From Nostoc punctiforme PCC 73102 (lineage in GTDB: Bacteria > Cyanobacteriota > Cyanobacteriia > Cyanobacteriales > Nostocaceae): a stretch of DNA of 32,000 nucleotides. A program made the position numbers and the translations under genes. Shown here piece by piece: positions 6,846 to 28,137 of the stretch. The stretch is from positions 1-32,000 of the forward strand of contig NC_010630.1 in the NCBI RefSeq assembly GCF_000020025.1, read 5' to 3'. The notes below the pieces were generated by a model, which saw only the letters and a program-made list of their open reading frames with translations, was not told where the DNA came from and did no database searches. The stretch's first letter is position 1, and every line of letters starts with the position of its first letter.

Positions 6846-7292
6846 TTGCATTACTCGATACTACAGAAAGTAACTTCCACGCTTTTAAAAGCAAAAGCGC
6901 ATCAAATGATGTCGATGTGTTTCTGGAGTAATAGCCATTATTGGAGTAGCTGCCCATCTCCAAGAAAAAAATCTTCTCCTGTAGTGATTCGGGTAGCTTA
7001 TTTTAAAAAAGTCAATTGGGTGGGGTTTAACTTTTGTAAATACCATGCAGAGGCGGTGAAAATATTCAGAACCCTACCAGCCAATGACAGATTTTTTTAT
7101 GAGATTAAGTTGAACTGTTATGCTGCATTCAACGTGTGGTGTATTGATGGTAAGCACTTTGAAAAACTAATAAGCGAACTTAACAATTATGTGGATATAG
7201 GGCTTGAATTTATAATTAGCACTCCCGATCAAGTCCCCGAACTGTTTCAAGCACTAAACCTGACATTCTATGAAAGGAGTGTTCAGTGTTAA
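6846..7292 (+). CDS. Hypothetical small protein upstream of, and coupled to, the relaxase; possible relaxosome accessory factor; start uncertain
   Basis: Its stop overlaps the relaxase GTG start (GTGTTAA). The C-terminal roughly 100 aa look protein-like (VVIRVAYFKKVNWVGFNF...DQVPELFQALNLTFYE). The N-terminal third is rich in C, W, H and S, so the real start may be ATG 6906 or GTG about 6984. Confidence 0.4.
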   Translation: MHYSILQKVTSTLLKAKAHQMMSMCFWSNSHYWSSCPSPRKKSSPVVIRVAYFKKVNWVGFNFCKYHAEAVKIFRTLPANDRFFYEIKLNCYAAFNVWCIDGKHFEKLISELNNYVDIGLEFIISTPDQVPELFQALNLTFYERSVQC

Positions 7293-11704: not shown

Positions 11705-11858
11705 ATTATGTGCAACCTGAGTTACCCTTAAATCAATGGGGACAAATGATCGTGAAACTAATCAAACACAGGCGGTTAAACTATATCGAAAAGCATTGCT
11801 TTCATCAAAATGGTTAACCGTTTACTGATACAACAAGGAATTGACCCAAATTTACTAT

Positions 11859-11901
11859 GAACTACCCCTGGCTCAAACTTTTGCACAGCCAGAGGTAGTT
11901 C
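11859..11901. terminator. Bidirectional hairpin between the convergent relaxase and T4SS operons
   Basis: gaactacccctggct pairs with agccagaggtagttc (14 of 15 bp) around a 13-nt loop. It lies between the stop codons at 11704 (+) and 11943 (-). Confidence 0.55.
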
Positions 11902-11942
11902 ATTATCTGAGTTTTATACCTGCACAAGTCAGATAAAACCTA

Positions 11943-13316
11943 TTACCTTCTCAATTTTGTTGACTGTGATTGGGTGTTAGTGTGCTTTAAATAATCAGAA
12001 ACTACCTCTCCCACTTCTTCTAAAGATTCAACATCATTCTCTGTAGCATTAGCAGTCAAATCACCGTCAACCATCACAGCCCGACCATCTTTAGCTGTAA
12101 CAGTAATACTATCCCCATTTTGGTAAAAGTTGTAATTCTTACTCTCATAACTGCGTGAACCATCAGAATGCTGATCACCAAAAAGACGCAGCATGGAATC
12201 TACACCCTTGGCAAGAGCCTTGCCTTTAATATCCATCACGCTGTTAGTAACTTTTTCGATATTCTGCTTCACAGTATGATTAGTTGCTGAGTGAATATCA
12301 CCAACAGCTTGAGTTATCTGTTTATGGACTGTATTAACTTCCTCTGAAATCTTATTATGAATAGCACCCATAGCAGCTTGATGACGCTCCATGCCATGCT
12401 GAATCTCATCACTGACTAACTGCTTGACTTCACCAATACCATCGTTAACTACACCCAACTGTGATTCAAATTCATTTTTAACAGCTGCAACTTGTGACTT
12501 CATCTCAGTTTTAAGAGACTCCATCTGTTGATTCATCTGCTCTTTTAAGGTGGTAATTTGAGTCTCTAATTGGGCTTTGACTTTATCAACTTTGGGAGTG
12601 AGGGCAGTTTTTACCTGTTCATAGAGATTTTTGGCAGTGTTCTTAGCCTTAGTCTCAATCGAGTTTATCCAATCATGCAAGGTTGCATTCTTGACCGCAG
12701 GGTTATTTTGATTATTTATAGCTTCCAGTCCCTTCTGCAATTGCTCAATAGTTTTTTGTTGAGCATCAAAAGCTTGTTTCAGACTAATCAAATCAGTCGA
12801 TAACTGTTTGGTAACTTCAACGTTTGATTGCTTTTGATTGGCAAAATGATCAATCAAACTTTGCTGGTCTTGAAGCTTTTGCTGTAAAGCCTCTACCTGC
12901 TTTTGTAAATCCTCAATGGTGGAAGATTGTTGTACTGGTTTGGCTGGTTGTTGAGACTGGGATTGATTCTGGCTAATCTGGCTACTTAAACCCAGTTTAT
13001 CACTTAAAACCTCTCCATCCTTAACATGATAGACCTTATCCTTACCAATCATGATGCGGACAGAACCTTTCAAGTTTTGCGGGTCATTGATAGCCGTCTT
13101 GATTTTATCTACCAGTTCTGGAGTCATCAAATTTACGGAGACTTCGCCATCAGGATGACCTTTATACTTGGGTTGGTTGCCAACGTAAATTGATAAGTCT
13201 TTAGTAGTGTCTAACTCTTGAAACTTGCCCTTCTCTAACAGCTTATGCAGAATGTCGTTGAGGATTTCTAAATAATCATGTTGCACAACTTTCGCCTCCG
13301 ATTTTATTTCATCCAT
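11943..13316 (-). CDS. Hypothetical 457-aa protein: two small beta-rich end domains flanking a roughly 250-aa Q/K/E-rich helical repeat region
   Basis: It is the last gene of the T4SS operon, with an 8-nt overlap (ATGGATGA) with the upstream ORF. The central region (VKTALTPKVDKVKAQLETQITTLKEQMNQQMESLKTEMKSQVAAVKNEFESQL) is apolipoprotein- or coiled-coil-like. I recognise no family. Confidence 0.6.
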   Translation of the reverse strand: MDEIKSEAKVVQHDYLEILNDILHKLLEKGKFQELDTTKDLSIYVGNQPKYKGHPDGEVSVNLMTPELVDKIKTAINDPQNLKGSVRIMIGKDKVYHVKDGEVLSDKLGLSSQISQNQSQSQQPAKPVQQSSTIEDLQKQVEALQQKLQDQQSLIDHFANQKQSNVEVTKQLSTDLISLKQAFDAQQKTIEQLQKGLEAINNQNNPAVKNATLHDWINSIETKAKNTAKNLYEQVKTALTPKVDKVKAQLETQITTLKEQMNQQMESLKTEMKSQVAAVKNEFESQLGVVNDGIGEVKQLVSDEIQHGMERHQAAMGAIHNKISEEVNTVHKQITQAVGDIHSATNHTVKQNIEKVTNSVMDIKGKALAKGVDSMLRLFGDQHSDGSRSYESKNYNFYQNGDSITVTAKDGRAVMVDGDLTANATENDVESLEEVGEVVSDYLKHTNTQSQSTKLRR

Positions 13317-13731
13317 GATTTGTGACTCCTACTAAGGAATTAATGAGAGTCGATGGACTGACTAAGACATCTGGTAAAACTACACCTCCTAAACGATTAA
13401 GAATTACATCTCCTTCAATTTGGATATAAGCCCATTGGTCATCAATTAGAACTGAAATTGACTTTGTGTTATCAGGTAAGTTGGTCACGTTATAATCTTT
13501 TAGCTCTCCATTTACTATGAAAATATGAGGAGTTTCTGCATCGCCATAGTAAATTTCAATGAATTCTGGGACATGATTTTCAGGGAACGGTGGTTCATCC
13601 CAAAACTCTGCTGCATTGAAGATATCAGTCCGATAAGTGTTAACTAACGAGGCAATATCAAGCGGCAGTTTGCTTAACAATTGCAACTCGTATTCAGATA
13701 AATTAGTCATGTTGCTTTGCTCCAAATTCAA
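13309..13731 (-). CDS. Hypothetical 140-aa protein (alternative ATG start at 13710)
   Basis: It is co-directional with and coupled to the downstream ORF. No motif is recognised. Confidence 0.5.
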   Translation of the reverse strand: MNLEQSNMTNLSEYELQLLSKLPLDIASLVNTYRTDIFNAAEFWDEPPFPENHVPEFIEIYYGDAETPHIFIVNGELKDYNVTNLPDNTKSISVLIDDQWAYIQIEGDVILNRLGGVVLPDVLVSPSTLINSLVGVTNHG

Positions 13732-13864
13732 TAATTCAAAAATAAATAATTTTAGGGCTTTGGAACCCTTTCATCGGAGGGAAAATAAATTTTTCTCTTC
13801 TGCCTACACTACGGGAATACTTACACGAACTACCCTCTGCCTTTCTTCGGTCATAAATTACCTC

Positions 13865-15724
13865 CTAAAGATTTTTCAATCTGTTATTTGCCTCTGCTTT
13901 TTTATCAACTAAAGGCAATAACATCTCTGCCTCTAAATGCCGGATTTCTAACTCTTCCCCAGATGGTTCACGCAAAGTAGATTGTGAGATAAACTGTTGC
14001 TGGAGTTCATACCACTTTTCAATACTTTTCGCCTCCAAGTTAATATCAGATTGTGGAATACGAATTTGCTCTAATAGCGGAATACTTACATCTCTACCAG
14101 AGCGAAACCCAGGACTAACAATTACGGCTCTGCCTTCCGGTAAGGTATTAAATTGGTTAACCTCAAATAAATTGCGGGTAATATTTTGCTCAGAAATTGA
14201 GGTACTTGCACCACCTTTACCGCCTGAACTGCGTGAACGCTCTCTGTGCTTGATTTGCTCATCACCTAAGAAGTTACTAAAACGTTCCGCCGCCACATCA
14301 TCTTGGGGATTAAAGAAAGCTTTTGTAGCGCAACCGCCAAATATAGCATTGGTAGTTTCTTTGGAATAAGCCTTCTCAAGCTGTGATAGGTTTTGCAATC
14401 CCAGTAAACAAATTAAGCCATCTTCACGATTTTGGTTGAGCCAATCAACTAAGGCTGGTAGATACAAAGTTGGTAATTCATCCAGTGCCAAAACTAATGG
14501 TTCTGTGCGTTTGCCAGCCAAATTACGAGAACATAAAAGGTGCAAAATAGAAACTAACAAAGGAGCAATTACATCTCGTTTCTCCTTGTCCATACCGAAA
14601 ACCACCATCTTCCTCCCCTTCAAATCCAAAGGGATATTTGTTTGACCACAGAAGCCAGAAAGGGTGGATGGGGTCATAAAGCGAGTAAATAATCCGCTTG
14701 TTGTACCGACAATACTAGCGGCGGTTTCTGGAGAACCAGCTACAGATAGGAATTGGTCAAAGGCAACTTTTACCCAAGGATTTAAAGAAGCTTGTTGAAT
14801 GCGGTCAATTAATTTAGGCAAACTGAGAATGGCATGGCACATCATAATGTCAGGAAAACAAGTACCCCGCGCCAGCATAAAGATTGCTTGTGCCAGCTGA
14901 TCCCCTGCATTAGCAAAAAATCCACTATCTAAAGCATCACCACTTGTCAACTTAAAATTACGATTGAGGACGATCGCTAACTGACGCGCCATCTCTGCAT
15001 CACTTTCACTCCGCAAAAAATCTAGGGGATTAGCTACGCAGGATTCAGGAAAACCAGGGGAGAGGATAGAAACCTCATACCCACGCATAGCGGCGTATCC
15101 TGCTAGTTTGGGTGCTTGCCCTTTAGCGTCAGCTGTAGCCGATTCTTGGTGACTATATTTAAAATCGTAAAGGATAATTGGTAGTCCCTGATCGATAGCG
15201 GAACGTACCATAGGGTTAATCATGGAGAAGGTTTTACCAGAACCAGCCCCGCCACAAACTAAAATTCCACGTTGTACATCTGGCAGATAGAGCCTGCTTT
15301 TATCTTCTGGAATATTGATAATGCGTTTGTTGTCAACAACCTGAAAAGTAGTACCTTTAGGTGTACCAATGTATAAAGCTACCCTGTTATGTTTGCGTTC
15401 AATAAGTTGTTTGCAGGCCAGCTTACGAGCTGCTGTTTTCTCCCTACCTCCTGCCCATCGCGCCCGTGCTAGTTTGTTTGTTGCCCCTCGCCCCTCCATT
15501 GCTTTCGCTAACATTAATGCGCCCACACTTACAAGTAATCCCAAACCCATTGGGGAAAAAAAGGCATCCTTAAAATTCTCAGGAACAAGGTTATAAGCTG
15601 AGGGGGCAGGGGTCGCTGGGGAGGAAAAAGAACTATTTCTCAATGAATCTTTCTCCCCCTGCTGCACACCTCCCCCTGCTCTCTTTACTTGTTGGGTAGT
15701 TTTGGATATTTCAGCCATTTTCAC
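13865..15724 (-). CDS. virD4: Type IV coupling protein (VirD4/TraG/TraD family)
   Basis: An N-terminal TM helix (MGLGLLVSVGALMLAKAM), Walker A VCGGAGSGKTFSMINP and Walker B LVLALDELPTL are present. It is 619 aa and lies in the T4SS operon. Its start overlaps the stop of the upstream gene by 4 nt. Confidence 0.85.
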   Translation of the reverse strand: MKMAEISKTTQQVKRAGGGVQQGEKDSLRNSSFSSPATPAPSAYNLVPENFKDAFFSPMGLGLLVSVGALMLAKAMEGRGATNKLARARWAGGREKTAARKLACKQLIERKHNRVALYIGTPKGTTFQVVDNKRIINIPEDKSRLYLPDVQRGILVCGGAGSGKTFSMINPMVRSAIDQGLPIILYDFKYSHQESATADAKGQAPKLAGYAAMRGYEVSILSPGFPESCVANPLDFLRSESDAEMARQLAIVLNRNFKLTSGDALDSGFFANAGDQLAQAIFMLARGTCFPDIMMCHAILSLPKLIDRIQQASLNPWVKVAFDQFLSVAGSPETAASIVGTTSGLFTRFMTPSTLSGFCGQTNIPLDLKGRKMVVFGMDKEKRDVIAPLLVSILHLLCSRNLAGKRTEPLVLALDELPTLYLPALVDWLNQNREDGLICLLGLQNLSQLEKAYSKETTNAIFGGCATKAFFNPQDDVAAERFSNFLGDEQIKHRERSRSSGGKGGASTSISEQNITRNLFEVNQFNTLPEGRAVIVSPGFRSGRDVSIPLLEQIRIPQSDINLEAKSIEKWYELQQQFISQSTLREPSGEELEIRHLEAEMLLPLVDKKAEANNRLKNL

Positions 15725-17010
15725 CCCCTCCCTAGAATGACTAAATCATTCTCTTGAGTGGGAATCCAAGGTACAGGGCCAATAAAGTAGGGAGTGCAAG
15801 ATTTACCACCCCAGAGAAAGCTAATGCAAAAACGAAAAAATAGCCCAAAGTTGGCTGTACCAGTGGACTCATTTACACCAGTTAGCACAACTTTGAAACC
15901 AGAACCGTAGACAAGCCTACCTGTTGGTTCTTTACCACCGTTAACACGTTGTAAGATCCCAAAACCACCGTCTACTTTCTGAGCAGAACCAGAAGCCCAT
16001 CGCTTACCGTAAAGGTTGCCAGCTTGCCCTGCGACATCACCTAGTTCTAGGAATGGACACTCTTTACCCACATTACAGGCGACAACAACATTTTTGTTGG
16101 AACGATTTACCCTACCAGAAACAAAGTAATTCTCTCTTGCCCTAGAATCACCACGTTCCGAATTACCTAAAACCACAGAAGCTATACCCACCACATCCAA
16201 ACCCGAATTAATCGGCTGTGGCATCTTGTCAAAAGGTACTTGATTTAGCCCCGGCACTTGATTAATGTAGCTTTGCTGCCAGCCTGGAAATCTTGATAGT
16301 TGCGTCTGATTAAGTCTAGGAATTGAGTTGATAGGATATCGATCTAGATCCAGTTTTTTACCCAAAGGGGTATTAGCAGCTTGTGGATTAGATTTTAAAA
16401 TAGTTGAAATCTTACCGTTCAGTCCAATTTTAAGCGAATTTTTGTCAGGTCTGTTTGACTTTGGAGTAGCTGCGGCTATTGAATTAGAAGTTATGCTACT
16501 GTAACGAGATTGCGCGAATAAATCATAAATAGGTGGAACTTGATTAATATCAAGGTTGCCCAAGCTGGGAATAGCTTTGACTAGGGTGTTGGGAGTTTGC
16601 CACTGCATTAATCCCAAGTCTTTGAGTGTAAGCTTGGGGCCCAGAGGTACGATGACAGAGATAGTTTTCAGGCTGAAGGCAGACATTTGAAAAGCATCAT
16701 CTACGTCCCCCAACATAATTACAGAATCAATACTCTGTCCGGCTGTCCAAGAACGGGAGGGATTATAGCCAATTTTTGCGACTATATCTGGGGAAATATC
16801 AAGATATCCGGGCTGTTGTAATGGATCTAAGCTGCTCCAATTGATTTTTGCCCAGTCTGGAGACTTTAATTGATATTTACCGGAATTATAAGTAACTGTT
16901 GGAATTTCTGCATTGGCGACACTGGGTAATTCTAAAAGTGATGTCGCAACCATTGAGGCAGAAACTATTGATAATAAAGCTCTATTGTTAATCACTGAGT
17001 TTGCCCCCAT
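15721..17010 (-). CDS. Secreted hypothetical protein (429 aa) of the T4SS operon
   Basis: It has an N-terminal signal-like segment ending [11 protein letters not shown] and a Gly-rich C-terminal half. I recognise no family. Confidence 0.6.
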
Positions 17011-17828
17011 TGCATCAGTTTATTGAACATTTCTTGGGGAATACCTGATAATCTAATAGCCTCTGTCCTACTTTTACCTCTCCTCAATAAACGGATGGTA
17101 TCTTGCGTTTGTCGCCATACTATAGACTTAGGTTTAATTGCGCCATTACCCACCGCTACCGCTAAACCGTAAGCTACGGCATTAGCATCATTTCTTTGTG
17201 AAACAGTGCTGGTTTGTGAAGTATTGACTGTTAAACGTGGTTTTTTCTCAAGATTCGGAGGTGCGGTATTACTGGTGATATTATTGGTATTGTTTAACCT
17301 ATTTTGATTAACTAACGGTTTCTCAGCTATTAATAACGGCTGTGGTTTATCCGAATCTGGCTTAATAATTAAACTGGTATATTCTGGTTTACCTCTAGCC
17401 GGAATCAACTGAAATTGATATTGTTTTTGACTGTCAGCACTAGCAGTAATCACGGTAATCACGGTACTACCATCTTGACTGGAAGTTAAAACCGGAAAAC
17501 TAATTGGTTTAATTTGTCTGAGAAATAGAATTGTAGCTCCTCCACTACCACAATTTTCATCTGATGCACCACGCTGACATAAGTTGCCATTGGAAGTTAA
17601 AGCAAAGCGGGAAGGGTCTCCTAACCACACTTGCTTGATAGTTTCACCTGTGGGAATGAAATTGATAGTTAAACCATAACCAGCCCAAATCTTTAAGTCA
17701 ATTCCATGAGAATTACTACCTTGAGCATCTTGTGAATAAACATTTCTCGCGGCTGGTAGCGCTAAAGCTGTGCCTGTATTAGCGTTGATAACTAACGTAG
17801 TTAGCAGTAAAAACCCTAAACGTTTCAT
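16992..17828 (-). CDS. VirB9/TrbG/CagX-like outer-membrane core component candidate
   Basis: The signal peptide is [51 protein letters not shown]...ILFLRQIKP...QYQFQLIP follows the VirB9 N-domain pattern (F.pGE.I..v..GD...W...lfvKP...Y.f.L) as I recall it. Confidence 0.5.
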
Positions 17829-17913
17829 ATCACAACAGATTTATCTGCAAGAAATTGTGTAATAGTTATAAATTCAGAATTTATCCTTTTAACTCATTAC
17901 TCATTGCCTAATT

Positions 17914-19431
17914 TCATATCGAAATTGATTGATTGACAAAGATTTGCACTGGTTTACCTGTTTCAATTACGAAAACTTGCTGTTGCTGTTGTACTTGTTG
18001 TAATTGCTGCTCATTGGAATTTTTCATCCTACTGAGAATTTGATTAATACTGCCTTCAGTAAAACCAGCCAGTAAATTCTTATCACTGTTACTTGTTGTA
18101 GTGGTTGTTGTACCCAAAGAGCTAATTGTTGTCTCTGAATTAGCTCTATTTTGAATCTCAGCCACCTTAGATAAACCAGACAGCATAGATGCCATGAGCG
18201 AATTGCCTAAATTACTGCCACCTTGACGAGATTCAGCTTTAAGTAAATTGCCATTTTTACCCAATATCAAAATCGAATTCTGAGGCAGTGGCTTTTCCTC
18301 TGTTTTACCGTTGATGTTCACTAATACAGAAACAGCCGTCATTTGCACTATTTCTGAGTTAGTGGGATTGATCATAGCCACAACATAAGCATTTTTGGGT
18401 AAAACTTCAGACCCATCAAATGCTTTCAGAGGTTGAGTTAAACGAATCAGGCTATTTTGTTGCTGCTGATTACTTACACCACTACCCACCCAGGCTACAG
18501 GAGTTTCTATCATACCCGCCGCACGAGTTCCGACTAAAACCCGCTTGCCATCGTAGTTAGTCGGTGGTGACTGTGGTGAAGAATTGCGATCACTCCGAGG
18601 TAGGCTATCTGGTTTTACCCCTATACCCCCATTCACTTGAACATTACCCAATTCTGCCTCTTCCTGGTTTAAATCTGCATTGCCAGTGTCAGTAGAGGAG
18701 TAATTACCGACATTAGCAGCTGCTAACCACTCCTGCATAGGGTCTTTGGGAGTAGTACGACTGGGTAATGGATTGGAAACAACTTGAGATTTTATGGGTT
18801 TTGATACAGGAGCAGGCGCAGATTGTCTAACTACTGGTTGAGCAGCCACGCGATTGCTTCTACTAGGTCTAGTAACAGTAGGTAGCGGTGGTGCTTGATG
18901 AATAGTTAATGGTCGCGTTGGTGTAGGCTGAGTTTTGACGGTAGGTGTAGGAGTGACTGTAGCTGTAGGGGTAATTGTTGGCGTTGGTGGTGCAGTTTCA
19001 GCGTTTTTTTTAGTAACAGCTTGTAACTCCCCTTTTTGAGAGGTGAGAGCGATCGCTGTTTTAAGCTCTCCTTCCTCATTTTCATCATCTGATTTAATAT
19101 CTGTCTGAATACTTTTTGCATTTTGCTGGGCTGGCTTATCACCGGGAGAATTCAAAGCCCCTGTAATTGAGCTAATCATCGTTCCAAACATGACAACTAT
19201 TAACAGCACCCCACCAGAGACTGTTAACCCTTTTAGTAATGGGTGATTAGCTACAGGGCGAGTAGTGACAATTTCTTCTGGTTCAGTTTTTTGTTCATCC
19301 ACAGGTGATGATGTTTCTGAAACATTGGAAATTTCTACCCCATTCATCCGAGCAAATTCTTGGCTTCTATGGGAAGTATCACCAGTAGTAGCTTCAGAAT
19401 TCGTATTTACAACTTGACTTTGATTTGACAT
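17914..19431 (-). CDS. VirB10/TrbI-like core component candidate
   Basis: The canonical architecture is present. It has a cytoplasmic N-terminus, one TM helix (VSGGVLLIVVMFGTMISSITGAL) and a Pro/Thr-rich linker (PPTPTITPTATVTPTPTVKTQPTPTRP). It also has a C-terminal beta-domain ending VFVIETGKPVQIFVNQSISI. Confidence 0.55.
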   Translation of the reverse strand: MSNQSQVVNTNSEATTGDTSHRSQEFARMNGVEISNVSETSSPVDEQKTEPEEIVTTRPVANHPLLKGLTVSGGVLLIVVMFGTMISSITGALNSPGDKPAQQNAKSIQTDIKSDDENEEGELKTAIALTSQKGELQAVTKKNAETAPPTPTITPTATVTPTPTVKTQPTPTRPLTIHQAPPLPTVTRPSRSNRVAAQPVVRQSAPAPVSKPIKSQVVSNPLPSRTTPKDPMQEWLAAANVGNYSSTDTGNADLNQEEAELGNVQVNGGIGVKPDSLPRSDRNSSPQSPPTNYDGKRVLVGTRAAGMIETPVAWVGSGVSNQQQQNSLIRLTQPLKAFDGSEVLPKNAYVVAMINPTNSEIVQMTAVSVLVNINGKTEEKPLPQNSILILGKNGNLLKAESRQGGSNLGNSLMASMLSGLSKVAEIQNRANSETTISSLGTTTTTTSNSDKNLLAGFTEGSINQILSRMKNSNEQQLQQVQQQQQVFVIETGKPVQIFVNQSISI

Positions 19432-19435
19432 AAAG

Positions 19436-20152
19436 CTACTTTCCTAAATCTAAATCTTGGATGCGGTAAATTTCCATTCCCGCTTTTCTAGCTCTATAAG
19501 CCTCTATCTGTGGTACAGAAGGATTATTCGGTAAAGGTGGTGTATCTACTGCTCTCACAAATACAGTTTTATTAAAAGAAATAGCCTTACCTAATTGGTC
19601 TTGACCTTTAAAAACTACTAAGTTGGCAACCATTTCTAATCGCCATTTACCTTCTTCTATTTTCTGAGGAGGCGAAAGATGGCGTACAAGTAAAGCTGAT
19701 TGAGTATCACCATTAAACACGTCAGGCGGTGTTAAAGCTGCGATTTCTCGCAGAAAACTAGCGCGAAAATCTTCTGATAATGCAAATCCTGCACTCCAAG
19801 TATTTGTAGTGAGTTTTTTATCAGATACTTGTACACCGGGGTCAAGTTTTAGTTTGGTTGGATCTAAGTTACTATCAGACGACTTGGGAACGGCATTCCA
19901 ACTCATCAAATTCATCATTGTCCGCCCTGCAAAGTCCATAATCGCTTGGTCAGTACGGTCTTTTTCTCCTACAGCAATTGCTCTAATGGAAGTACCGTCT
20001 TGAAGTTCTACTAAGGTAGGTTTCTGGTTAGATATTTTACTTAATTTACTGGAATTAGTTAGATTTATCAGTAACAAGAAGAGTAAGATAACAGCTTGCC
20101 CTATTGATACTAAGGGAGTAAAGTTTATCTCTTTCTTATCAAGTAATCTCAT
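19436..20152 (-). CDS. VirB8-like bitopic inner-membrane component candidate
   Basis: It is 238 aa with a single N-terminal TM helix (VSIGQAVILLFLLLINL) followed by a roughly 190-aa periplasmic domain. Its position between the VirB6-like and VirB10-like genes fits. The assignment is by architecture only. Confidence 0.45.
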   Translation of the reverse strand: MRLLDKKEINFTPLVSIGQAVILLFLLLINLTNSSKLSKISNQKPTLVELQDGTSIRAIAVGEKDRTDQAIMDFAGRTMMNLMSWNAVPKSSDSNLDPTKLKLDPGVQVSDKKLTTNTWSAGFALSEDFRASFLREIAALTPPDVFNGDTQSALLVRHLSPPQKIEEGKWRLEMVANLVVFKGQDQLGKAISFNKTVFVRAVDTPPLPNNPSVPQIEAYRARKAGMEIYRIQDLDLGK

Positions 20153-21240
20153 CTGAATACCCTCCCTGAGATTAACCTCCCACTGCTAGAGAAACATGAG
20201 AAAGCTGCCATCCCTCCACCAGACCCCATTGCTAACGCCAGTATTGGAGACAAAATTGCTTGTACTAGCTGTAAGAACAAGGGATTATTGTTACTAGCAT
20301 TCACTATTGCACTAGCAGCCATTCCACAAACAATTGAGTATGACATGAGTACCAAAGTCAGTGCTAACCATCCTGCAACCCAAGCATAGATGGGTTTAGC
20401 TCCAAAAGGAAAAAGTGAAAGCACTAAAAAAATAGGGGCGATATAGGCATTTAGTAAGAATGCTACTTGCACAACATATTGAAAGGCTGCTTGTAAGCCA
20501 CTGAATATAATCCATGACAGGGCTTGCACCATTGAATTAATAGTTTGCCCAGCTATATCTAATGGATTCCAGCTATTTGAATAGGAAGATAAACCGTGCT
20601 TTTCTTTATACTTTTGAGCGTTATTTTTAGCTTGATTTATTTTTTCATCTCTACATATTTCTCTGGGATTAATTTTTTGTCCTTGGTCATCTACGCCATT
20701 CTCAGGCTCTTTTTCACATTCTTGTAGTTGTGTTTGAACTGAAATAGCAAAAGCCTGATCCATATTGGCAGTACGAATAGCATCTCTCAAAGTAATGCCA
20801 TTTCGCGTAATACTTAATACTTTGTCATTCAAATTTACCGCTACATTACGAAACATCAAAGATGTGGTAGCAAGTAACTGCCCATTATTAACAGTCAACA
20901 TTAAACAGACTAATAATGGATAGACCATCTCATTCAAAATTTCATGACTAAATCCTTCCTGAATTAACCTAGAATACCAACTGATAGACCAGAAAGAAAC
21001 AAAAACCACTCCACATAAAGCAGAAACAGCAACTACTGCTTTAAAAACTTCACTGTTACCGTTAGCTAAATCTTGCCAGTCTTGGTTAAATGAAGATACA
21101 ACCATGCGAGAGCCATTAATCGCACCGTCAACTATATCTTCCGCGTTTGTATCTCCAGTAACTGCTAGTAAATACCAGAAGTTAGTTAAATTATTTAGCA
21201 TTGCTTTGCTCCCAAAAAGCATCAGCAAAAGCAGCCGCAC
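20149..21240 (-). CDS. VirB6/TrbL-like polytopic membrane protein candidate (likely start ATG 21201)
   Basis: It has multiple hydrophobic helices and a central hydrophilic loop, and it sits in the expected operon position. The assignment is by architecture only. Confidence 0.45.
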   Translation of the reverse strand: MRLLLLMLFGSKAMLNNLTNFWYLLAVTGDTNAEDIVDGAINGSRMVVSSFNQDWQDLANGNSEVFKAVVAVSALCGVVFVSFWSISWYSRLIQEGFSHEILNEMVYPLLVCLMLTVNNGQLLATTSLMFRNVAVNLNDKVLSITRNGITLRDAIRTANMDQAFAISVQTQLQECEKEPENGVDDQGQKINPREICRDEKINQAKNNAQKYKEKHGLSSYSNSWNPLDIAGQTINSMVQALSWIIFSGLQAAFQYVVQVAFLLNAYIAPIFLVLSLFPFGAKPIYAWVAGWLALTLVLMSYSIVCGMAASAIVNASNNNPLFLQLVQAILSPILALAMGSGGGMAAFSCFSSSGRLISGRVFR

Positions 21241-21961
21241 CTATAATTTGTCTTGCACTGGAATTATTATTAGCTTGCTCTTTTCTTGCTTGTTCATCCA
21301 ACCTACTGGAAATGTCACTCAAATTGATATTGGCTGCTGATAAAGCTCTAGTTTGTTTTTGTGCTTCACTGTGAATTGATTTAGTAATAACTGTTGTTTG
21401 TAGATTCTGCACTGCCATCTTTTTCAAGATGTCTTGAGTGATGACATCATTTTGTACTTCATCAGCAGTATTAGATGAATTTTCTACAGCATAATTAGAG
21501 ATTTCTGCTTCTTGCGCTTGAGTTTTTTGCCCTTCTCTGCCTAAAACAGATCCAGATAGTCCATAAGTATAAGCTTGATGCCATTGTCTCTGAGCATTTT
21601 CACCTTGGGCTTGAGAATCAGTTTCTACTAAATCAGTATCTTGCTGTTGAATAATCACCTTGATATTTTTACCTGCTTTTAATGGGTCAGGTATACCCAT
21701 AACTCCATTTGTAGAAGTGATGGCTATATCTAGGTCTTTATCTTCATCTTTGTTAGCGTCTTTCGATAGCTGGCTAAATTCTTGGCTATACAGCTTAATG
21801 TATGACTGCAAGCTTGTCATGACTTGCTGAAATTGTTCTAGAAATGAAGATTTGGCTGTGGCCGGTAAAACTGAACAAAAAATGAATACAACTATTAAAC
21901 TACTAAAAACTGCTAAATGGCGGTAGATATGGGCTAATGTCAATCGGCTGAGTGATTTCAT
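21191..21961 (-). CDS. Secreted helical protein (256 aa); possible VirB5-like minor pilus or adhesin component
   Basis: It has a signal or anchor segment LAVFSSLIVVFIFCSVLPATA/KSS and a GGAG SD upstream of the ATG. Its position before the VirB6-like gene fits. The functional assignment is weak. Confidence 0.35.
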   Translation of the reverse strand: MKSLSRLTLAHIYRHLAVFSSLIVVFIFCSVLPATAKSSFLEQFQQVMTSLQSYIKLYSQEFSQLSKDANKDEDKDLDIAITSTNGVMGIPDPLKAGKNIKVIIQQQDTDLVETDSQAQGENAQRQWHQAYTYGLSGSVLGREGQKTQAQEAEISNYAVENSSNTADEVQNDVITQDILKKMAVQNLQTTVITKSIHSEAQKQTRALSAANINLSDISSRLDEQARKEQANNNSSARQIIGAAAFADAFWEQSNAK

Positions 21962-22460
21962 ATAAATTCTCCAAGGAGACTGTAAAAGATTTGGGAGCGC
22001 AAGCAGATATTACTTCTGCTTTATTTCCTAAAAGTTTCTTACCAGTTACTATTAGTGGTTCTGGTGGATATTTATCTGGTTGCCTAGATAATCTTTCAAA
22101 TAAATTACCTTCATATCTAGGATTAACAGGGATTAAAGATACTGGCTTATCATACATCAGTATGTATTGTTGCTCTGGTTTAAAATCAGTATTTATCCCA
22201 GGTTTATTTAATTTAATTTGAAGTTTATCTTGAGTTTTACTTGCATAATATGCCGCTTTGAGAAATCGGTCACTTTGTACATATCGGTTAGCAGAATTTA
22301 AACGTTGTTGACAAGCTTGCTGTTTCTGGGCAATATACTTCTCATGCTGTTGCTGATGCCACTTCCACACTTCAAATGATGCCCATGATGATAAAACTCC
22401 TAAAATAGCCAACAAGACTTTATATTGTGCAAATACCGTAGCAATTTCTAACTTTTTCAT
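21903..22460 (-). CDS. Hypothetical bitopic membrane protein (185 aa)
   Basis: It has an N-terminal TM helix VLLAILGVLSSWASF. Its start overlaps the virB4 stop by 4 nt. Confidence 0.5.
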   Translation of the reverse strand: MKKLEIATVFAQYKVLLAILGVLSSWASFEVWKWHQQQHEKYIAQKQQACQQRLNSANRYVQSDRFLKAAYYASKTQDKLQIKLNKPGINTDFKPEQQYILMYDKPVSLIPVNPRYEGNLFERLSRQPDKYPPEPLIVTGKKLLGNKAEVISACAPKSFTVSLENLYEITQPIDISPYLPPFSSF

Positions 22461-25400
22461 AAAGGCTTTCCCTGCTTAATGCAACCAACATAGTATTTAG
22501 CAAATTCAGACACCCATTGAAACTTATCTGAGTACATTGCTTTAAACCTATCGCGTGCTGCTTGCTCTTCTCTGCTATTAGCAACTAACGCCAACATTGG
22601 GTAGGAAGGATAGTAACGACAGCGTATATATTTGTTGTTGTAATCCAATAGCCACAGCGTATATAGCTGTTTTACATTGGGACGAAAACTTTCATTTTTA
22701 TCAATAATTTGCTTTGGTATGCCTAAATGCTCTGAAAAACTTTTTGCAGCCCCTGGTACTATCCGCCCTATTAACCGACAGGGCATATTTTGTAAAATTT
22801 GTTCACCAGCTTCTGAGTTAGCGATCGACAGAATATCTTGACCCGCAAGTATGACCCGACAGCCAGATTTTCGAGCAGTCGCGCATTTACGACCCACTAA
22901 CCGCGATAAAGCAGCAAACCGCAACAATACACTGGATTCATCCATGAAGAAAACGCTATTGGGTGCTGATAGGGATTGTCTAGAAGCGGCAATATAAGCA
23001 GACATCCCGAAAACTTCAGCGTCTTTACTTGATTGCAGGTTGGTGAGGGCAAAGGTAATCAGCTTGGCATCAGTATCAAAGGTGGAGGGACGACAGATGG
23101 CATTGCCAATACTGCTGTTTCTCCAATATTGAAAGCGTAGGCGGATATAGTTCAATGCCCTATCTACGTTTTCATCTTCATAACCCAAGTTTATGTGGTC
23201 TGTTGAGAAAAAATGCTCCATATCTGCAAGGGTTGGGGTATTCTCCCAAGCCGCAGAACCTAATCCTCCTTTCTTGGCAAGAGCAAAGCGTTGTTGAATG
23301 TCGGGGTCATCGTAAAAGGCTTTTGTCCCTAGTGGGATAAGGGATTCGATTGTTTGGGACAAGAAACCATCAAATGATTGCGAACCCAAGACTAACTGAA
23401 GAACAATCAAGTTGACATCGTTTCTGTGGGCTTTAGCTCGTTCCTCCCGTTGTTCTTCTGGAATTTTTGATAAGTCTAACGGCTGCACCAAATTGTTAGA
23501 CTCTTTGGAAATATCAAAGTAAAAACCGTTGTGATAGGGTGTGTAGTCCCCAAATGTCCCTGTGCCGTCATCATTGGGCAGGTCTATCATTAAAATGCTC
23601 ATGTCCTGAGCTTGGCACTCGGCGATGATGGAAGCTACCAAAACTGATTTACCTGAGCCGGTTGTACCCAGAACTAAAATATTCTTGGTTTTTGATAAGT
23701 CAATTTTGACGGGTGAATCACTCTCATCTGCGATTAACTCAAACCCTTGATGATCTGCGGGACTATTCTGCACTATATTAGTTAATCCCAAAACTTCACT
23801 TGCAAAGAAAGTTTGCCGACGATTATATGGGCGCATCAAAATCGGTTCTTGCCTGATGAGCAATGTTTGCAGCCAGATTAACCAAGCATATTCATATTCA
23901 CGGGTTAGTTCTGTGGGTTGGTTAATATAGCCAGCTATCAACCTACAGGCATCGTCTACTTGCTCTGCTGTATCTCGGTAAACCAGCACTACCAAGCTTA
24001 AATTTAGTGGTACATCTCCTGTATATAGTTGCCTTTGTGCTTCCACTGAGCGTTCCACATTGATTTGGGCAGAGACATCTATTGATTTTTTCTGCTGAAC
24101 ATTCAAATCTAATGCCCTAGAACGTTTGGTAATCATCTGCTGGGCTGCACGGTTTATCCCTCGGTCAGCCGGCGAGAATTCTGTGATGATTTCTACATCA
24201 AAAATGTTGTTGCGTGAGAATAAATCCCACAAGAAACGAATTTGATGTTTAGTAGAGGCAAAGATTTCTGGTTTCCGGGTTAGTACCATTACTCCGACAT
24301 ACTTTTTCTCATCACCGTTGGGTAAGCAAATCCATCGTTTATCGGCGAAAGGTACACCATTATTGAGAATAATTGAGGTGAGATGCGGTTGACTGATGAT
24401 TTCCAGTGGTTTATCCAATGCAGCCTTTTCATCAATTTCTTCTCTTAATCCCTCTTCATCAAATATTAGAGTATGCGGAATGATTACTTCTTTTGCTCCA
24501 ATATTTTTACAAAGCTCTCTCCATAGGTCTCTATCGGTTTTAGGTTGAGGATTCAAGCCCATTTCTGAAAGAATTTGTTGGTATCTCAATGAGGCTTCTA
24601 AGGCTTTTGTTAAAATCTGTGTAAATCGCTTTTTGGTGATTTGACTAATTCCTGAATCTGTGAATCTTCTTTGGAGGAAGTTAGTTAGTTTTGCCAAAAA
24701 CTTATCTACTGGGTCTGAAGTATCTAGCGATTCTGAGGTGACTGTAAATGACCAATAAATATTTAATTTGATATCTTTACGAGCTTTCTCCTTTGTCAGT
24801 TTTTGAGTTCTTGCTAACCTCCCCCAGTCTAAAAACTCACTTTCTAGAGACGTTGGATTATTCAAACGTTGCATTAAATAATCTGTACTATCACTATCAT
24901 CGCAGAATGAACTCCAGCGACAAGTGATTTTTTCGCCTTGGGGAATTTCTTTACAGCCGTTTTCAAAGGCTTGAGCCACCGCTTCTATTTCTTGTTCTGA
25001 ATGGAATAAAGGATGAATTCCAGTACAAGCAAAACCAAATATTAATTGCAGAGTGTTACTACTTTCTGTCAGATTCTTTTTACTTAGTAGATAAGCTCCA
25101 ACGACATAAGAATCTTTTTTTAGTCTGACTATAGTAGTCAAATCTAACCAATCTTCAAATGGATTGAGGGTTTTAGGTTTAGATGAACGAGTTAGCTTGA
25201 CTTTTCTAGTACCGACTTTTTTTTTATGCTGTGGTGATGTGTAATTAGCATATCCTCTTGTCCATCTGGGAAGAATTGGATAAACCTTTGACCAGTACAG
25301 GTAAGGTTTATCTCCTGATAAAAAAGCTACTGATAAACTAGCCCAAAATGCCAAGCCTAAACCCCAAAATATATCTAATCCGAGAATTAAGCAAAGCAGT

Positions 25401-25513
25401 CCAAAAACTACGCAGAATACCCCAGCGAAAATTACGAACTGTCTGCCTGTAAATGGGCCAAACTTTGGGCTTTCACCTAAGCTCTGATTGACTTTGATTA
25501 TCTCTTGTTTCAT
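22457..25513 (-). CDS. virB4: VirB4/TrbE/CagE-family T4SS ATPase with a fused N-terminal VirB3-like two-helix membrane domain
   Basis: It is 1018 aa. The N-terminal hydrophobic hairpin is FVIFAGVFCVVFGLLCLILGLDIFWGLGLAFWASLSVAFL. Walker A is LVLGTTGSGKSVLVASI, Walker B is SVFFMDESSVLL, and RVILAGQDILSI follows. Confidence 0.85.
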   Translation of the reverse strand: MKQEIIKVNQSLGESPKFGPFTGRQFVIFAGVFCVVFGLLCLILGLDIFWGLGLAFWASLSVAFLSGDKPYLYWSKVYPILPRWTRGYANYTSPQHKKKVGTRKVKLTRSSKPKTLNPFEDWLDLTTIVRLKKDSYVVGAYLLSKKNLTESSNTLQLIFGFACTGIHPLFHSEQEIEAVAQAFENGCKEIPQGEKITCRWSSFCDDSDSTDYLMQRLNNPTSLESEFLDWGRLARTQKLTKEKARKDIKLNIYWSFTVTSESLDTSDPVDKFLAKLTNFLQRRFTDSGISQITKKRFTQILTKALEASLRYQQILSEMGLNPQPKTDRDLWRELCKNIGAKEVIIPHTLIFDEEGLREEIDEKAALDKPLEIISQPHLTSIILNNGVPFADKRWICLPNGDEKKYVGVMVLTRKPEIFASTKHQIRFLWDLFSRNNIFDVEIITEFSPADRGINRAAQQMITKRSRALDLNVQQKKSIDVSAQINVERSVEAQRQLYTGDVPLNLSLVVLVYRDTAEQVDDACRLIAGYINQPTELTREYEYAWLIWLQTLLIRQEPILMRPYNRRQTFFASEVLGLTNIVQNSPADHQGFELIADESDSPVKIDLSKTKNILVLGTTGSGKSVLVASIIAECQAQDMSILMIDLPNDDGTGTFGDYTPYHNGFYFDISKESNNLVQPLDLSKIPEEQREERAKAHRNDVNLIVLQLVLGSQSFDGFLSQTIESLIPLGTKAFYDDPDIQQRFALAKKGGLGSAAWENTPTLADMEHFFSTDHINLGYEDENVDRALNYIRLRFQYWRNSSIGNAICRPSTFDTDAKLITFALTNLQSSKDAEVFGMSAYIAASRQSLSAPNSVFFMDESSVLLRFAALSRLVGRKCATARKSGCRVILAGQDILSIANSEAGEQILQNMPCRLIGRIVPGAAKSFSEHLGIPKQIIDKNESFRPNVKQLYTLWLLDYNNKYIRCRYYPSYPMLALVANSREEQAARDRFKAMYSDKFQWVSEFAKYYVGCIKQGKPL

Positions 25514-25713
25514 GAGCTTTTAAAAATTGCCATTAAATCAGAAATCAGAAGCCAGAATTCAAAATAAGTACAGGTATTATCAGCATCAATAAGGCGGTGC
25601 ATCCTCGTAATTTTTTGATTGGTAGCAACTGCCGTTAAATGCTGTTTAGGAGTCAGTATGGATTCTGATTTCTGAATTATTCGGTCATTAGTTACAAGCT
25701 GTGTTATTGCCAA
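25510..25713 (-). CDS. Doubtful small ORF (67 aa, TTG start) between the pilin candidate and virB4
   Basis: The only support is the ATGA overlap with the virB4 start. It uses a TTG start, overlaps the pilin ORF by 26 nt, and has no motif. Confidence 0.2.
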   Translation of the reverse strand: MAITQLVTNDRIIQKSESILTPKQHLTAVATNQKITRMHRLIDADNTCTYFEFWLLISDLMAIFKSS

Positions 25714-26257
25714 AAAGCAGTGATTGGAATACTACAATCAATATCACAGATATGAAGGTAAAAATTGGCTGCTGAATGACATTACTAACTTCTTCACCAC
25801 GTCCATACGCCGCAACCCCTTGATAAATAGAGAAGCAGAAATAACCGAATAAAACTATTGTCAAGGCGGTAAATAAAATCATTGGCAGACTAGTTAAGAC
25901 TGCATTAGTAATCGCTCCACCTGCTGAGGCACTAGTAATTATACATTCCATTGCTTTTTGTGCATTAGAAAATATGGAATCTGCTCTAGCTGCCCTCGAT
26001 TGTAAACCAATTAAAAGCGTTGTAGTGACTGAAACAAGCTGCCAACGTACCTGAAAAAATATCTCCAATAAGCTTTTTGAACCTTTATTTTTTGTTGCTC
26101 TACTATCAGCACGTTCATCTGCTGATATAGATGCTTTGAGCCGAGCCAAAGTCAAAGGTAAGTGTTTTCTCTGCATAACAAAGACTAGGAAACTGCTTAA
26201 CTGTCCTAGAGCATCCACTTTTGGAAGAAAAATAATTATTTCGTACCATAAACCCAC
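25688..26257 (-). CDS. VirB2/TrbC-like pilin precursor candidate (more likely start ATG 26176, MQRKHL...)
   Basis: It is the first gene of the T4SS operon. A long basic leader ends in an A-x-A-like site (QSRAARA/DS). The mature part is about 95 aa with two hydrophobic helices (GGAITNAVLTSLPMILFTALTIVLFGYFCFSIY and IFTFISVILIVVFQSLLFG). These are separated by a short charged loop (GRGEE). Confidence 0.45.
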   Translation of the reverse strand: MGLWYEIIIFLPKVDALGQLSSFLVFVMQRKHLPLTLARLKASISADERADSRATKNKGSKSLLEIFFQVRWQLVSVTTTLLIGLQSRAARADSIFSNAQKAMECIITSASAGGAITNAVLTSLPMILFTALTIVLFGYFCFSIYQGVAAYGRGEEVSNVIQQPIFTFISVILIVVFQSLLFGNNTACN

Positions 26258-26470
26258 TATATGGGTTGTCTAAAAAAGTCTATCTGCCAAAACTGAATGC
26301 TCACAACTGTCCTTTGCCAAAAAGACACACTTTAATTACTAGGAATAAATCTGATTTCCTGTCAAAATCAATTATTTTGCAAAGGAACAATAAAAAAACT
26401 CTAGTACAACTAACTAGAACCAAACCAGTTTTGTAAATTTAATTCAAATTTCTATATACTTTTTTACTAT

Positions 26471-26475
26471 TAAAC
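26471..26475. repeat. Left copy of the 5-bp target-site duplication TAAAC
   Basis: It is identical to 31300-31304 and immediately abuts the terminal inverted repeat. Confidence 0.8.
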
Positions 26476-26524
26476 GGGGTAAATATAGCGAAGCTGTCAC
26501 CAGGGGCAAGATAGGCTGAAAGTA
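26476..26524. repeat. Left terminal inverted repeat (IRL) of the Tn3-family element
   Basis: ggggtaaatatagcgaagctgtcaccaggggcaagataggctgaaagta is the exact reverse complement of 31251-31299. Confidence 0.9.
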
Positions 26525-26556
26525 TTGTGGAGTCTGGGTTTGAGAAAAAGAGTTGA

Positions 26557-27024
26557 TTATTGGATTTTAGCGGTTTTGACAGGCGTTTTATAAGCACAGC
26601 CACAAATTGGACAAAATCGGTGTCTCAAAGACAACACCAACTCACCGCAATTCGCACAGTTAGCTCGAATCGGTGTACCGCAGAGATAACAAAACTTGGC
26701 TTTGATATGACTCCACATAGGGTCAACCGCCGCGCCAGGATTCCAACATTGGGGACAAAACTTAACCCCTCTAACCTGAGATACTTCCTCACCCTTGATC
26801 ACAGCATCAAAATATTCTTGAGGTACGCCAAGTGCGATCGCTAACCCTTGAAGTGTCCTACGATTAATTTTAAGCGTAAGTCCTCGCTCGATTTTCCCGA
26901 CAGAGCGTCCATGTATACCAGCAGCATCCGCCAACTCAGACTGAGTTAAATTGAGTTTCTTCCTGACCCGTGACACGTAACTAGCAAGGGATTCATCGCT
27001 ATTGGGAGTTTTAAAAGTATCCAT
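26557..27024 (-). CDS. XRE-family HTH protein fused to a C-terminal double zinc ribbon (four CxxC pairs); transposon passenger or regulator
   Basis: The HTH_3 pattern is LNLTQSELADAAGIHGRSVGKIERG. The C-terminus carries CPQC...CYLC...CANC...CPIC. Confidence 0.75.
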   Translation of the reverse strand: MDTFKTPNSDESLASYVSRVRKKLNLTQSELADAAGIHGRSVGKIERGLTLKINRRTLQGLAIALGVPQEYFDAVIKGEEVSQVRGVKFCPQCWNPGAAVDPMWSHIKAKFCYLCGTPIRANCANCGELVLSLRHRFCPICGCAYKTPVKTAKIQ

Positions 27025-27101
27025 AAAAAGCTCAGGGCTAACTCATAAAAAGATATATAATTTATCAATAAAAAACCAAGCGAGAGAATACAGAAACAAC
27101 C

Positions 27102-28016: not shown

Positions 28017-28137
28017 GGCAATTATATAGAATCACTCAGTTCCAGTATGTTTTTCATCGAGAAACAGCATTTTATCTCAGTTAAAGATTGTTACCCCAAA
28101 GAAGATAGAATACTGTTTGGTTGAAGAGTGAGACTTA

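Follow-up and report, generated by a model that had tools for sequence, protein, structure and literature searches.

Organization of the gene cluster

We analyzed a stretch of 32,000 nucleotides of Nostoc punctiforme PCC 73102 (contig NC_010630.1, positions 1 to 32,000 of the forward strand), called the window below. Positions 11943-26257 of the window hold a compact cluster of genes for a type IV secretion system (T4SS), and a relaxase gene on the opposite strand converges on it. An earlier reading of the same DNA, made without database searches and here called the sequence-only reading, had described twelve to thirteen tightly packed open reading frames (ORFs) in this interval. The ORF list contains twelve, all co-directional on the minus strand; in the order of transcription they encode proteins of 189, 1018, 185, 256, 363, 238, 505, 278, 429, 619, 140 and 457 aa. 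The genes of the cluster, in this order, and the relaxase gene are as follows.

25688-26176, minus strand: pilin-like protein of the alr7204 family, 162 aa from the start used by its homologues (189-aa ORF), directly upstream of VirB3-VirB4
22457-25513, minus strand: VirB3-VirB4 fusion ATPase, 1018 aa, from its match to alr7206 and Pfam
21903-22460, minus strand: bitopic protein, 185 aa, with an N-terminal transmembrane (TM) helix and an invariant Cys pair, C50/C154
21191-21961, minus strand: secreted, predicted all-helical protein of the alr7207 family, 256 aa, at the VirB5 position
20149-21201, minus strand: VirB6/TrbL-like polytopic inner-membrane protein, 350 aa (363-aa ORF)
19436-20152, minus strand: bitopic protein of the alr7209 family, 238 aa, at the VirB8 position, from position and topology
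17914-19431, minus strand: VirB10/TrbI-like protein, 505 aa, from Pfam TrbI
16992-17828, minus strand: VirB9/CagX-like secreted protein, 278 aa, with an invariant Cys pair
15721-17010, minus strand: secreted orphan of the alr7212 family, 429 aa
13865-15724, minus strand: VirD4-type coupling protein, 617-619 aa, with an N-terminal membrane anchor, from Pfam
13309-13731, minus strand: acidic (pI 4.1) cytoplasmic protein, 133-140 aa, directly after VirD4
11943-13316, minus strand: cytoplasmic protein, 457 aa, mostly coiled coil, last gene of the cluster
7286-11704, plus strand: MOBF relaxase-helicase, 1472 aa, convergent with the T4SS genes

Several of these genes overlap, by 4 nt at 15721-15724, 20149-20152 and 22457-22460, by 8 nt at 13309-13316 and by 19 nt at 16992-17010. 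The overlap at 15721-15724 requires a GTG start of VirD4; gene callers and RefSeq use an ATG two codons downstream, which gives a protein of 617 aa. Homologues point to shorter starts for the pilin-like gene (25688-26176, 162 aa), the VirB6-like gene (20149-21201, 350 aa) and the 140-aa ORF (13309-13710, 133 aa). The sequence-only reading had quoted the three 4-nt overlaps, which stand (the first with the GTG start), and a further one at 25510-25513, which is part of a 67-aa ORF with a TTG start (25510-25713). This ORF was rejected as a thirteenth gene, and is probably not one, because the spacer in which it lies cannot be aligned even with relatives whose identity in the rest of the cluster is 96-98%. 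The spacer that separates the pilin-like gene from VirB4 varies, with 174 nt here and 508 nt in plasmid pNe_2 of Nostoc edaphicum CCNP1411 (window 25565-25661 versus pNe_2 22711-23146), and its central part is unalignable between close relatives.

VirB4, VirD4 and the relaxase

The genes for VirB4, VirD4 and the relaxase lie together within 19 kb, and the joint presence of a relaxase, a type IV coupling protein and VirB4 is the gene content by which conjugative elements are recognized. The identities of these three proteins are strongly supported by sequence comparison. The Walker motifs on which the sequence-only reading had based its two ATPases are readable in the translations: Walker A LGTTGSGKS and Walker B FFMDES in VirB4, and CGGAGSGKT and ALDELP in VirD4. 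VirB4 matches Pfam P-loop_TraG with 27.5 bits (cut-off 25.8) as well as DUF87; among PDB sequences, phmmer returned only P-loop matches, to FtsK-like proteins. VirD4 matches TraG-D_C (1.4e-24), TrwB_AAD_bind (3.5e-24) and T4SS-DNA_transf (6e-17) in Pfam, and TrwB in the PDB (E 2.6e-4).

The N-terminus of the 1018-aa protein forms a membrane hairpin (aa 26-66), which the sequence-only reading had called a fused VirB3-like element. The hairpin and a match to a separate 99-aa ORF upstream of VirB4 in plasmid pCC7120alpha fit this; the direct comparison with VirB3, taken up below, does not support it. We consider the hairpin a putative VirB3 by its position, its topology, its membership in a family of the cyanobacterial mating-pair-formation class MPF_C, and published profile comparisons. 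VirB3 and VirB4 are fused in some relatives of the pCC7120gamma type and separate in others.

The relaxase has Pfam matches to TrwC (8e-86), AAA_30 (1.3e-57) and, at its C-terminus, DUF3854 (1.9e-43). It is 32% identical to TrwC of R388 over 924 aa (E 1.6e-129), which places it in the MOBF family, and 79% identical to MobF of pCC7120gamma. The DUF3854 domain (residues ~1114-1237) shares 50% identity over 358 aa with a segment of a separate 1227-aa DUF3854 protein encoded after the T4SS of pCC7120alpha; since the domain is shared by the relaxase of the gamma type and the alpha protein, it travels with MPF_C whatever the family of the relaxase.

Assignment to the MPF_C class

The definition of MPF_C rests on the phylogeny of VirB4 and on eight profiles specific to the class, for which pCC7120alpha served as model (Guglielmini et al. 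2013, 2014). Five of the profiles were reported to be homologous to VirB3, VirB6, VirB8, VirB9 and VirB10, and no VirB2 homologue was found in the class (Guglielmini et al. 2014). By BLASTP, eight of the twelve window proteins match the products of alr7204-alr7213 of pCC7120alpha, in the same order. Judging from gene position, we take the eight profiles to correspond to alr7204, alr7205 and alr7207-alr7212. The BLASTP matches are listed below.

1018 aa, residues 92-1013, versus alr7206 (VirB4): 36% identity, E 1e-175
1018 aa, residues 8-91, versus the separate 99-aa upstream alpha ORF: 32%, E 3e-3
256 aa versus alpha 238 aa: 30%, E 4e-10
363 aa versus alpha 383 aa: 25%, E 4e-33
238 aa versus alpha 264 aa: 37%, E 1e-48
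505 aa versus alpha 513 aa: 24%, E 1e-12
278 aa versus alpha 246 aa: 26%, E 6e-29
429 aa versus alpha 398 aa: 32%, E 2e-59
619 aa (VirD4) versus alpha 589 aa: 45%, E 4e-169

An iterative search of 84 loci with a hidden Markov model (HMM) linked the 189-aa ORF to its positional equivalent in pCC7120alpha, a 201-aa gene. Every alpha gene flanking VirB4 thus has a counterpart in the window by one of the two methods, with the order kept. In a tblastn search of plasmids with the window VirB4, 132 of the 134 records matched were cyanobacterial and the other two were weak matches to Bacteroidota TraG. By these comparisons the cluster is an MPF_C system, as the sequence-only reading had proposed when it called the system a divergent one of the cyanobacterial class; it falls in a distinct subclade typified by pCC7120gamma.

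Proteins of the proposed envelope core

According to the sequence-only reading, only the two ATPases carried recognizable motifs. This has to be revised, for the VirB10-, VirB6- and VirB9-like proteins match family profiles as well. In the 505-aa protein a TM helix (about aa 75-93) is followed by a Pro/Thr-rich linker and, at the C-terminus, by a domain matching the whole of Pfam TrbI (residues 317-503, E 1e-7; 32.4 bits, below the cut-off of 35). Its orthologues carry the RefSeq name 'TrbI/VirB10 family protein', and an identical gene elsewhere has a precomputed PF03743 assignment. The 278-aa protein matches the NCBIfam VirB9 model TIGR02781 (E 1.8e-3), and 5 of 25 members of its family match Pfam CagX (best E 1.4e-5). 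In hhalign comparisons with an alignment of VirB9 from nine plasmids the family scored 91.5% (E 9e-7), and 43.8% when signal peptides were removed; a profile search of PDB sequences gave chance matches only. The roles of VirB9 and VirB10, which the sequence-only reading had assigned from architecture, are thus supported by profile matches.

The VirB6 role is supported more weakly. The 350-aa protein has at least four TM segments and a large loop by hydropathy, as anticipated for a polytopic VirB6, and matches Pfam TrbL with E 2.1e-5, its 24.8 bits lying about one bit under the cut-off of 25.9. VirB6 is at the top of its row in the hhalign comparison, at 7.9%, and PGAP names the pCC7120gamma orthologue 'type IV secretion system protein'.

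For the 238-aa protein, which has one N-terminal TM helix by hydropathy, hhalign gave 0.3-0.4% against VirB8 and less than 1% against TraE of F, and a profile search with its family found no match among PDB sequences. A VirB8/TraE homologue was reported among the MPF_C profiles from HHsearch in the published description of the class. We regard the protein as a putative VirB8 by position, topology, MPF_C family and these published comparisons. No profile test of our own bore out the VirB8 and VirB2 assignments of the sequence-only reading; what speaks for them is gene position and topology and, for VirB8, the profile comparisons published for the class. Membrane topology (Kyte-Doolittle) is consistent with each of the roles proposed here. 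In an hhalign comparison of the cyanobacterial families with 22 Tra proteins of the F plasmid, nothing exceeded 10%.

Pilin-like protein and the protein at the VirB5 position

The pilin-like protein has a predicted signal peptide ending ARA|DS, which would leave a mature part of about 97 aa made up of two hydrophobic helices around a charged loop, YGRGEEV; the helices appear as two TM segments in the Kyte-Doolittle plot. Members of the family occur at the same position in 79 of the 84 loci (iterative HMM), and their alignment shows a conserved AxA cleavage motif, two TM helices and an invariant Pro. The long signal peptide, the two helices and the location upstream of virB3-virB4 make up the architecture of VirB2/TrbC. 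The gene has a ratio of nonsynonymous to synonymous substitution (dN/dS) of 0.13-0.22. The mature regions scored 0.5% against VirB2 in hhalign, and the family yielded chance matches only in a profile search of PDB sequences. A 13% hhalign match of the full-length proteins was rejected as a sign of homology; it covers only the region of signal-peptide cleavage. Position, topology and MPF_C family are the grounds on which we treat the protein as a putative VirB2-like pilin.

All 13 aligned pilin-like proteins of the gamma subclade have one Cys near the mature start (..AMECII..) and one at the extreme C-terminus (..ACN); homologues of the alpha type and of a clade with VirB4 about 40% identical to that of the window have neither. 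The P-type pilins VirB2 and TrbC are cyclised head to tail, and we speculate that a disulfide joining the two ends of the gamma-type pilin would mimic this cyclisation.

The 256-aa family was found in 80 of the 84 loci. Against VirB5, hhalign gave 88% (E 3e-6), or 18.7% (E 1.3e-3) minus signal peptides, and in both cases this was the only notable value in its row and column of the comparison. One homologue is named TrbJ in UniRef. The family has no relevant match among Pfam, NCBIfam or PDB sequences, and the AlphaFold2 model is all-helical but, with a pLDDT of 47, unusable. VirB5/TrbJ-like is our best guess for this protein, and a weakly supported one.

The 429-aa orphan and proteins restricted to the gamma subclade

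The sequence-only reading had left at least five ORFs without a family name. Two of them can now be placed in MPF_C families: the 256-aa protein is alr7207-like and the 429-aa protein alr7212-like. The 185-, 140- and 457-aa proteins still belong to no family that we could name.

The 429-aa protein has a signal peptide, and 675 homologues were detected. Of the structural checks that the sequence-only reading had suggested, AlphaFold2 returned a confident model here (pLDDT 85.8, pTM 0.81), in which short helices make up the N-terminal domain and the C-terminal domain, with four invariant Cys, is rich in beta structure; Foldseek searches of the PDB and BFVD gave no match at E <= 1e-3, with query-normalised TM-scores below 0.1. 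Nor was a partner found among PDB sequences, Pfam, the proteobacterial VirB/D4 class MPF_T or F. Three relatives of about 600 aa (P0118-P0120 in our set) add a C-terminal extension with a Cys motif, NACxWAVN, and a His motif, GDIxL...HIGxC. Its best matches are weak (E 0.03-1) and consistently to CHAP and NlpC/P60 cell-wall peptidases. Because these relatives are fused to an NlpC/P60/CHAP-like extension, which the window protein does not have, we propose that the 429-aa protein may be a periplasmic accessory acting at the peptidoglycan or cell-wall layer.

The three remaining genes were found in the gamma subclade only. The 185-aa gene is present in 26 loci, always adjoining the gene for VirB4 or the 256-aa protein (dN/dS 0.18-0.20). 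The 140-aa gene is present in 18 loci, always after VirD4 (dN/dS 0.08-0.15), and has no match in Pfam or NCBIfam scans. The 457-aa gene, also in 18 loci (dN/dS 0.09-0.16), gave weak coiled-coil-type matches only (Apolipoprotein, SMC). None of the three proteins has a partner in pCC7120alpha, MPF_T or F. At the position equivalent to that of the 140-aa ORF, after VirD4, pCC7120alpha has a 163-aa ORF (locus L004, 22432-22923) with a partial match to a MobA/VirD2 relaxase domain (E 4e-9); the two show no similarity.

It is conceivable, though in our judgement rather doubtful, that gamma-type systems are a distinct MPF_C subtype with an envelope-spanning part unlike that of the T4SSs studied so far. 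The ends of the pilin would be joined by a disulfide; the 429-aa protein, with a fold unlike solved structures, would in some lineages bring its own NlpC/P60 hydrolase; and the 185-, 140- and 457-aa proteins would replace VirB7, VirB11 or accessory functions.

Relatives and integrity of the cluster

A megablast search of plasmids with the 14.3-kb region found 12 records, all from Nostocales. The closest, pNe_2, has 96% DNA identity over 99% of the region; a plasmid of Nostoc sp. TCL26-01 has 91% identity, and pCC7120gamma of Nostoc sp. PCC 7120 is fully collinear at about 80%. All twelve ORFs and the relaxase have full-length partners in pCC7120gamma, in the same order and with 60-88% protein identity. 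A scan of species-representative genomes gave 80 loci; the only one that is not cyanobacterial, a short contig assigned to Acetobacteraceae, has probably been binned wrongly. On two contigs from Nostoc, VirB4 is 99% identical to that of the window, and the exact 429-aa protein is present in at least 55 blocks of public assemblies. The sequence is thus not new, near-identical plasmids being already in GenBank; in public databases the genes of the cluster are mostly labelled 'hypothetical protein'. The order pilin-like protein, VirB3, VirB4, 256-aa protein, VirB6, VirB8, VirB10, VirB9 recurs in 68-80 of the 84 cyanobacterial loci. The highly iterated palindrome HIP1, GCGATCGC, occurs 10 times, compared with 0.11 expected from shuffles, in agreement with the abundance from which the sequence-only reading had deduced a cyanobacterial host.

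A second MPF_C lineage (loci L035-L084) has a VirB4 about 40% identical to that of the window, and many of its members lie on very long contigs or chromosomes. It carries two tandem paralogues of the VirB8-position gene (for example L035, 15553-17132), and in the 10 kb downstream of VirB9 it has neither a VirD4 nor a 429-aa gene. The loci may represent integrated elements or systems that have been turned to a different use.

Compared with pCC7120gamma and a plasmid of Calothrix NIES-22, all twelve genes and the relaxase gave Nei-Gojobori dN/dS values of 0.04-0.26, and in length the ORFs correspond to their orthologues. Because of these values and lengths we conclude that the system is not decayed and that all its genes are under purifying selection. 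The sequence-only reading had named frameshifts or stops relative to homologues as the mark of decay; there is no sign of decay, and its description of an intact, relaxase-linked system holds, with full-length ORFs and an adjoining MOBF relaxase.

Surroundings of the cluster

Further features of the window are as follows.

35-568: MULE/Mutator transposase fragment
2447-3199: ArdA antirestriction gene (Pfam 7e-41)
5318-6424: ParM/actin-like partition gene, upstream of the relaxase gene
6846-7292, plus strand: 148-aa ORF whose end overlaps the relaxase start; conserved in pNe_2
11857-11903: inverted repeat of 17 nt, 94% complementary, with a 13-nt loop, between the convergent genes for the relaxase and the 457-aa protein (repeat search)
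26476-31299: Tn3-family transposon, 4,824 bp, with 70-nt terminal inverted repeats beginning GGGG
26557-27024, minus strand: helix-turn-helix and double-zinc-ribbon regulator, within the transposon
27102-28016: tyrosine recombinase, within the transposon
28138-28896 and 29126-31183: transposase split in two ORFs, DUF4158 and DDE_Tnp_Tn3

The 148-aa ORF had no family match in the Pfam scan; from its position, it may encode a relaxosome accessory protein. The inverted repeat is probably a bidirectional terminator. A promoter and terminator scan predicted fewer sites than in shuffled sequence and was uninformative.

The transposon is flanked by a 5-bp target duplication, TAAAC (26471-26475 and 31300-31304). 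Its transposase gene, being broken up into two ORFs, may be a pseudogene. None of pNe_2, pCC7120gamma, Nostoc UHCC 0252 and Nostoc DedSLP03 has the transposon at this site. In pNe_2 (24435-26615) and pCC7120gamma, a gene for a conserved 726-aa protein with no Pfam match is found upstream of the pilin-like gene and co-oriented with it. In the window the transposon lies between this gene and the cluster, and the gene is cut off by the window's end (31886-32000 and beyond). The 726-aa protein may be a further component of the transfer system.

Proposed function and alternatives

From the gene content, the homology to the MPF_C model and the adjoining relaxase, we consider it likely that the cluster and the relaxase together serve a conjugative Nostoc plasmid as its module for mating-pair formation and coupling, one of the gamma subclade of MPF_C and with a TrwC-type MOBF relaxase. 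In such a module the relaxase would nick the origin of transfer (oriT) and remain bound to the transferred strand, and a membrane-anchored hexamer of VirD4 would take up the relaxase-DNA complex. The inner-membrane platform would consist of the VirB3-VirB4 fusion ATPase, the polytopic VirB6-like protein and the bitopic protein at the VirB8 position. The VirB10-like protein would span the periplasm by its Pro/Thr-rich linker to reach an outer-membrane core of VirB9 and VirB10. Cleavage of the 162-aa precursor after ARA would yield a two-helix pilin, with which the 256-aa helical protein might be associated as a VirB5-like pilus factor, and the 429-aa protein would act in the periplasm, at the peptidoglycan layer. 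With no VirB11 among the scanned ORFs, VirB4 and VirD4 would be the sole ATPases. F-type systems, too, are not known to have other ATPases.

Several results weigh against this proposal. No TrbC match was seen in Pfam for 23 members of the pilin-like family, nor any Pfam match for 34 members of the VirB8-position family; the N-terminal hairpin of VirB4 scored 0.8% against VirB3 in hhalign, and the VirB5 match of the 256-aa protein drops from 88 to 18.7% once signal peptides are removed. No oriT, VirB11, VirB1-type hydrolase or VirB7 lipoprotein was found; the searches for T2SSE/VirB11, SLT and lipoproteins covered all scanned ORFs, a set that excludes an 89-aa ORF at 3908-4177 and four embedded opposite-strand ORFs. 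The Tn3-family transposon, ~220-300 nt upstream of the first gene, might influence its expression. Finally, the literature consulted contains no functional study of any MPF_C member and no report of DNA transfer by these genes. A 2025 review calls MPF_C systems 'hypothetical' and notes 'a lack of functional studies', in keeping with what the sequence-only reading had said of the class; the one report that the review cites, from 1994, is of marker transfer for an Anabaena megaplasmid.

Three other explanations were weighed. That the cluster belongs instead to the proteobacterial VirB/D4 class MPF_T is suggested by the PLSDB/MOB-suite label of MPF_T for pNe_2 and pCC7120gamma, but even pCC7120alpha is so labelled; because the MPF_C model plasmid carries it too, the label cannot separate the two classes and was discarded. 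MOB-suite is not known to offer a category for MPF_C. The window VirB4 aligns with those of pTet and IncX4 (MPF_T) and with TraC of F (MPF_F) over only 20-24 residues around Walker A (E > 0.1), and TrwK of R388 returned no alignment at all, so that these four comparisons give 20-24 Walker A residues at most, against 36% identity over 942 aa to alr7206. Together with the failure to find VirB11, VirB1 and VirB7 among the scanned ORFs, this makes an MPF_T system exceedingly improbable. A T4SS of the MPF_C type could also serve a use other than conjugation, such as delivery of proteins or toxins, release or uptake of DNA, or spread of the plasmid within one filament. The related cores with VirB4 of about 40% identity, on long contigs or chromosomes and with no VirD4 or 429-aa gene within 10 kb downstream, indicate that such machinery exists in non-plasmid contexts, and three proteins specific to the subclade have no known role. 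The system of the window, however, includes VirD4 and adjoins a full MOBF relaxase-helicase; no effector-like genes were seen in the operon; and the backbone, with ParM-type partition and ArdA, bears the standard signature of a self-transmissible plasmid. We therefore regard this as very unlikely.

The system might, in turn, be encoded intact and yet not function on this particular plasmid, if the Tn3 insertion uncouples a promoter or the 726-aa gene from the operon or if a hydrolase or oriT is missing. The 4.8-kb transposon is indeed peculiar to this plasmid, as pNe_2, pCC7120gamma and the two contigs with a 99%-identical VirB4 do not have it, and no peptidoglycan hydrolase domain was found in the window; some relatives of the 429-aa protein have one. 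On the other hand, no ORF is truncated, all are under purifying selection, the pilin-like gene still has 220-300 nt of its native upstream sequence, and the operons of pNe_2 and pCC7120gamma likewise have no recognizable hydrolase. Loss of function on this plasmid thus seems unlikely, and a conjugative MPF_C module remains our preferred reading.

Nostoc and its relatives, which count among the main nitrogen-fixing and symbiotic cyanobacteria, have many large plasmids with natural-product and adaptive genes. A compact module of 19 kb with T4SS, coupling protein and relaxase, present in cultured strains that include the model strain PCC 7120, would be a practical start for first mating and deletion experiments and could underpin native gene-transfer tools for cyanobacteria. 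This is no new kind of system; the value of the analysis lies in a refined list of parts, with supported roles separated from guesses, and the interest stems from the uncharacterised class and not from an unusual locus.

Comparison with known systems

Like the window, pNe_2 and pCC7120gamma have all twelve genes and the relaxase in identical order. Only the window has the 4.8-kb Tn3-family transposon upstream of the pilin-like gene, and its spacer between the pilin-like gene and VirB4 is shorter.

With pCC7120alpha, the MPF_C model, the window shares the gene order pilin-like protein, VirB3, VirB4, alr7207-like, VirB6-like, VirB8-like, VirB10, VirB9, alr7212-like, VirD4, with pairwise identities of 24-45%, as well as a cyanobacterial host and the lack of VirB11. 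It differs in that VirB3 is fused to VirB4 in the window and separate in pCC7120alpha, and that the window has extra genes, that for the 185-aa protein after VirB4 and those for the 140-aa and 457-aa proteins after VirD4. The relaxase is of the MOBF family with a fused DUF3854 in the window, whereas pCC7120alpha has a MOBV relaxase and a separate DUF3854 protein. The pilin-like protein of the window also has a conserved Cys pair that alpha-type pilins lack.

The likeness to the MPF_T system of R388 (Trw/VirB-D4) is more distant. The relaxase is 32% identical to TrwC and VirD4 resembles TrwB; VirB9 is detectable by profile in the window, and VirB5, VirB6 and VirB10 more weakly; and the operon follows the same logic of VirB2-VirB3-VirB4-VirB5-VirB6-VirB8. 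In contrast to R388, the window has no VirB1, VirB7 or VirB11 among its scanned ORFs, its VirB4 is unalignable beyond Walker A, VirB10 precedes VirB9, and four extra proteins have no MPF_T counterpart.

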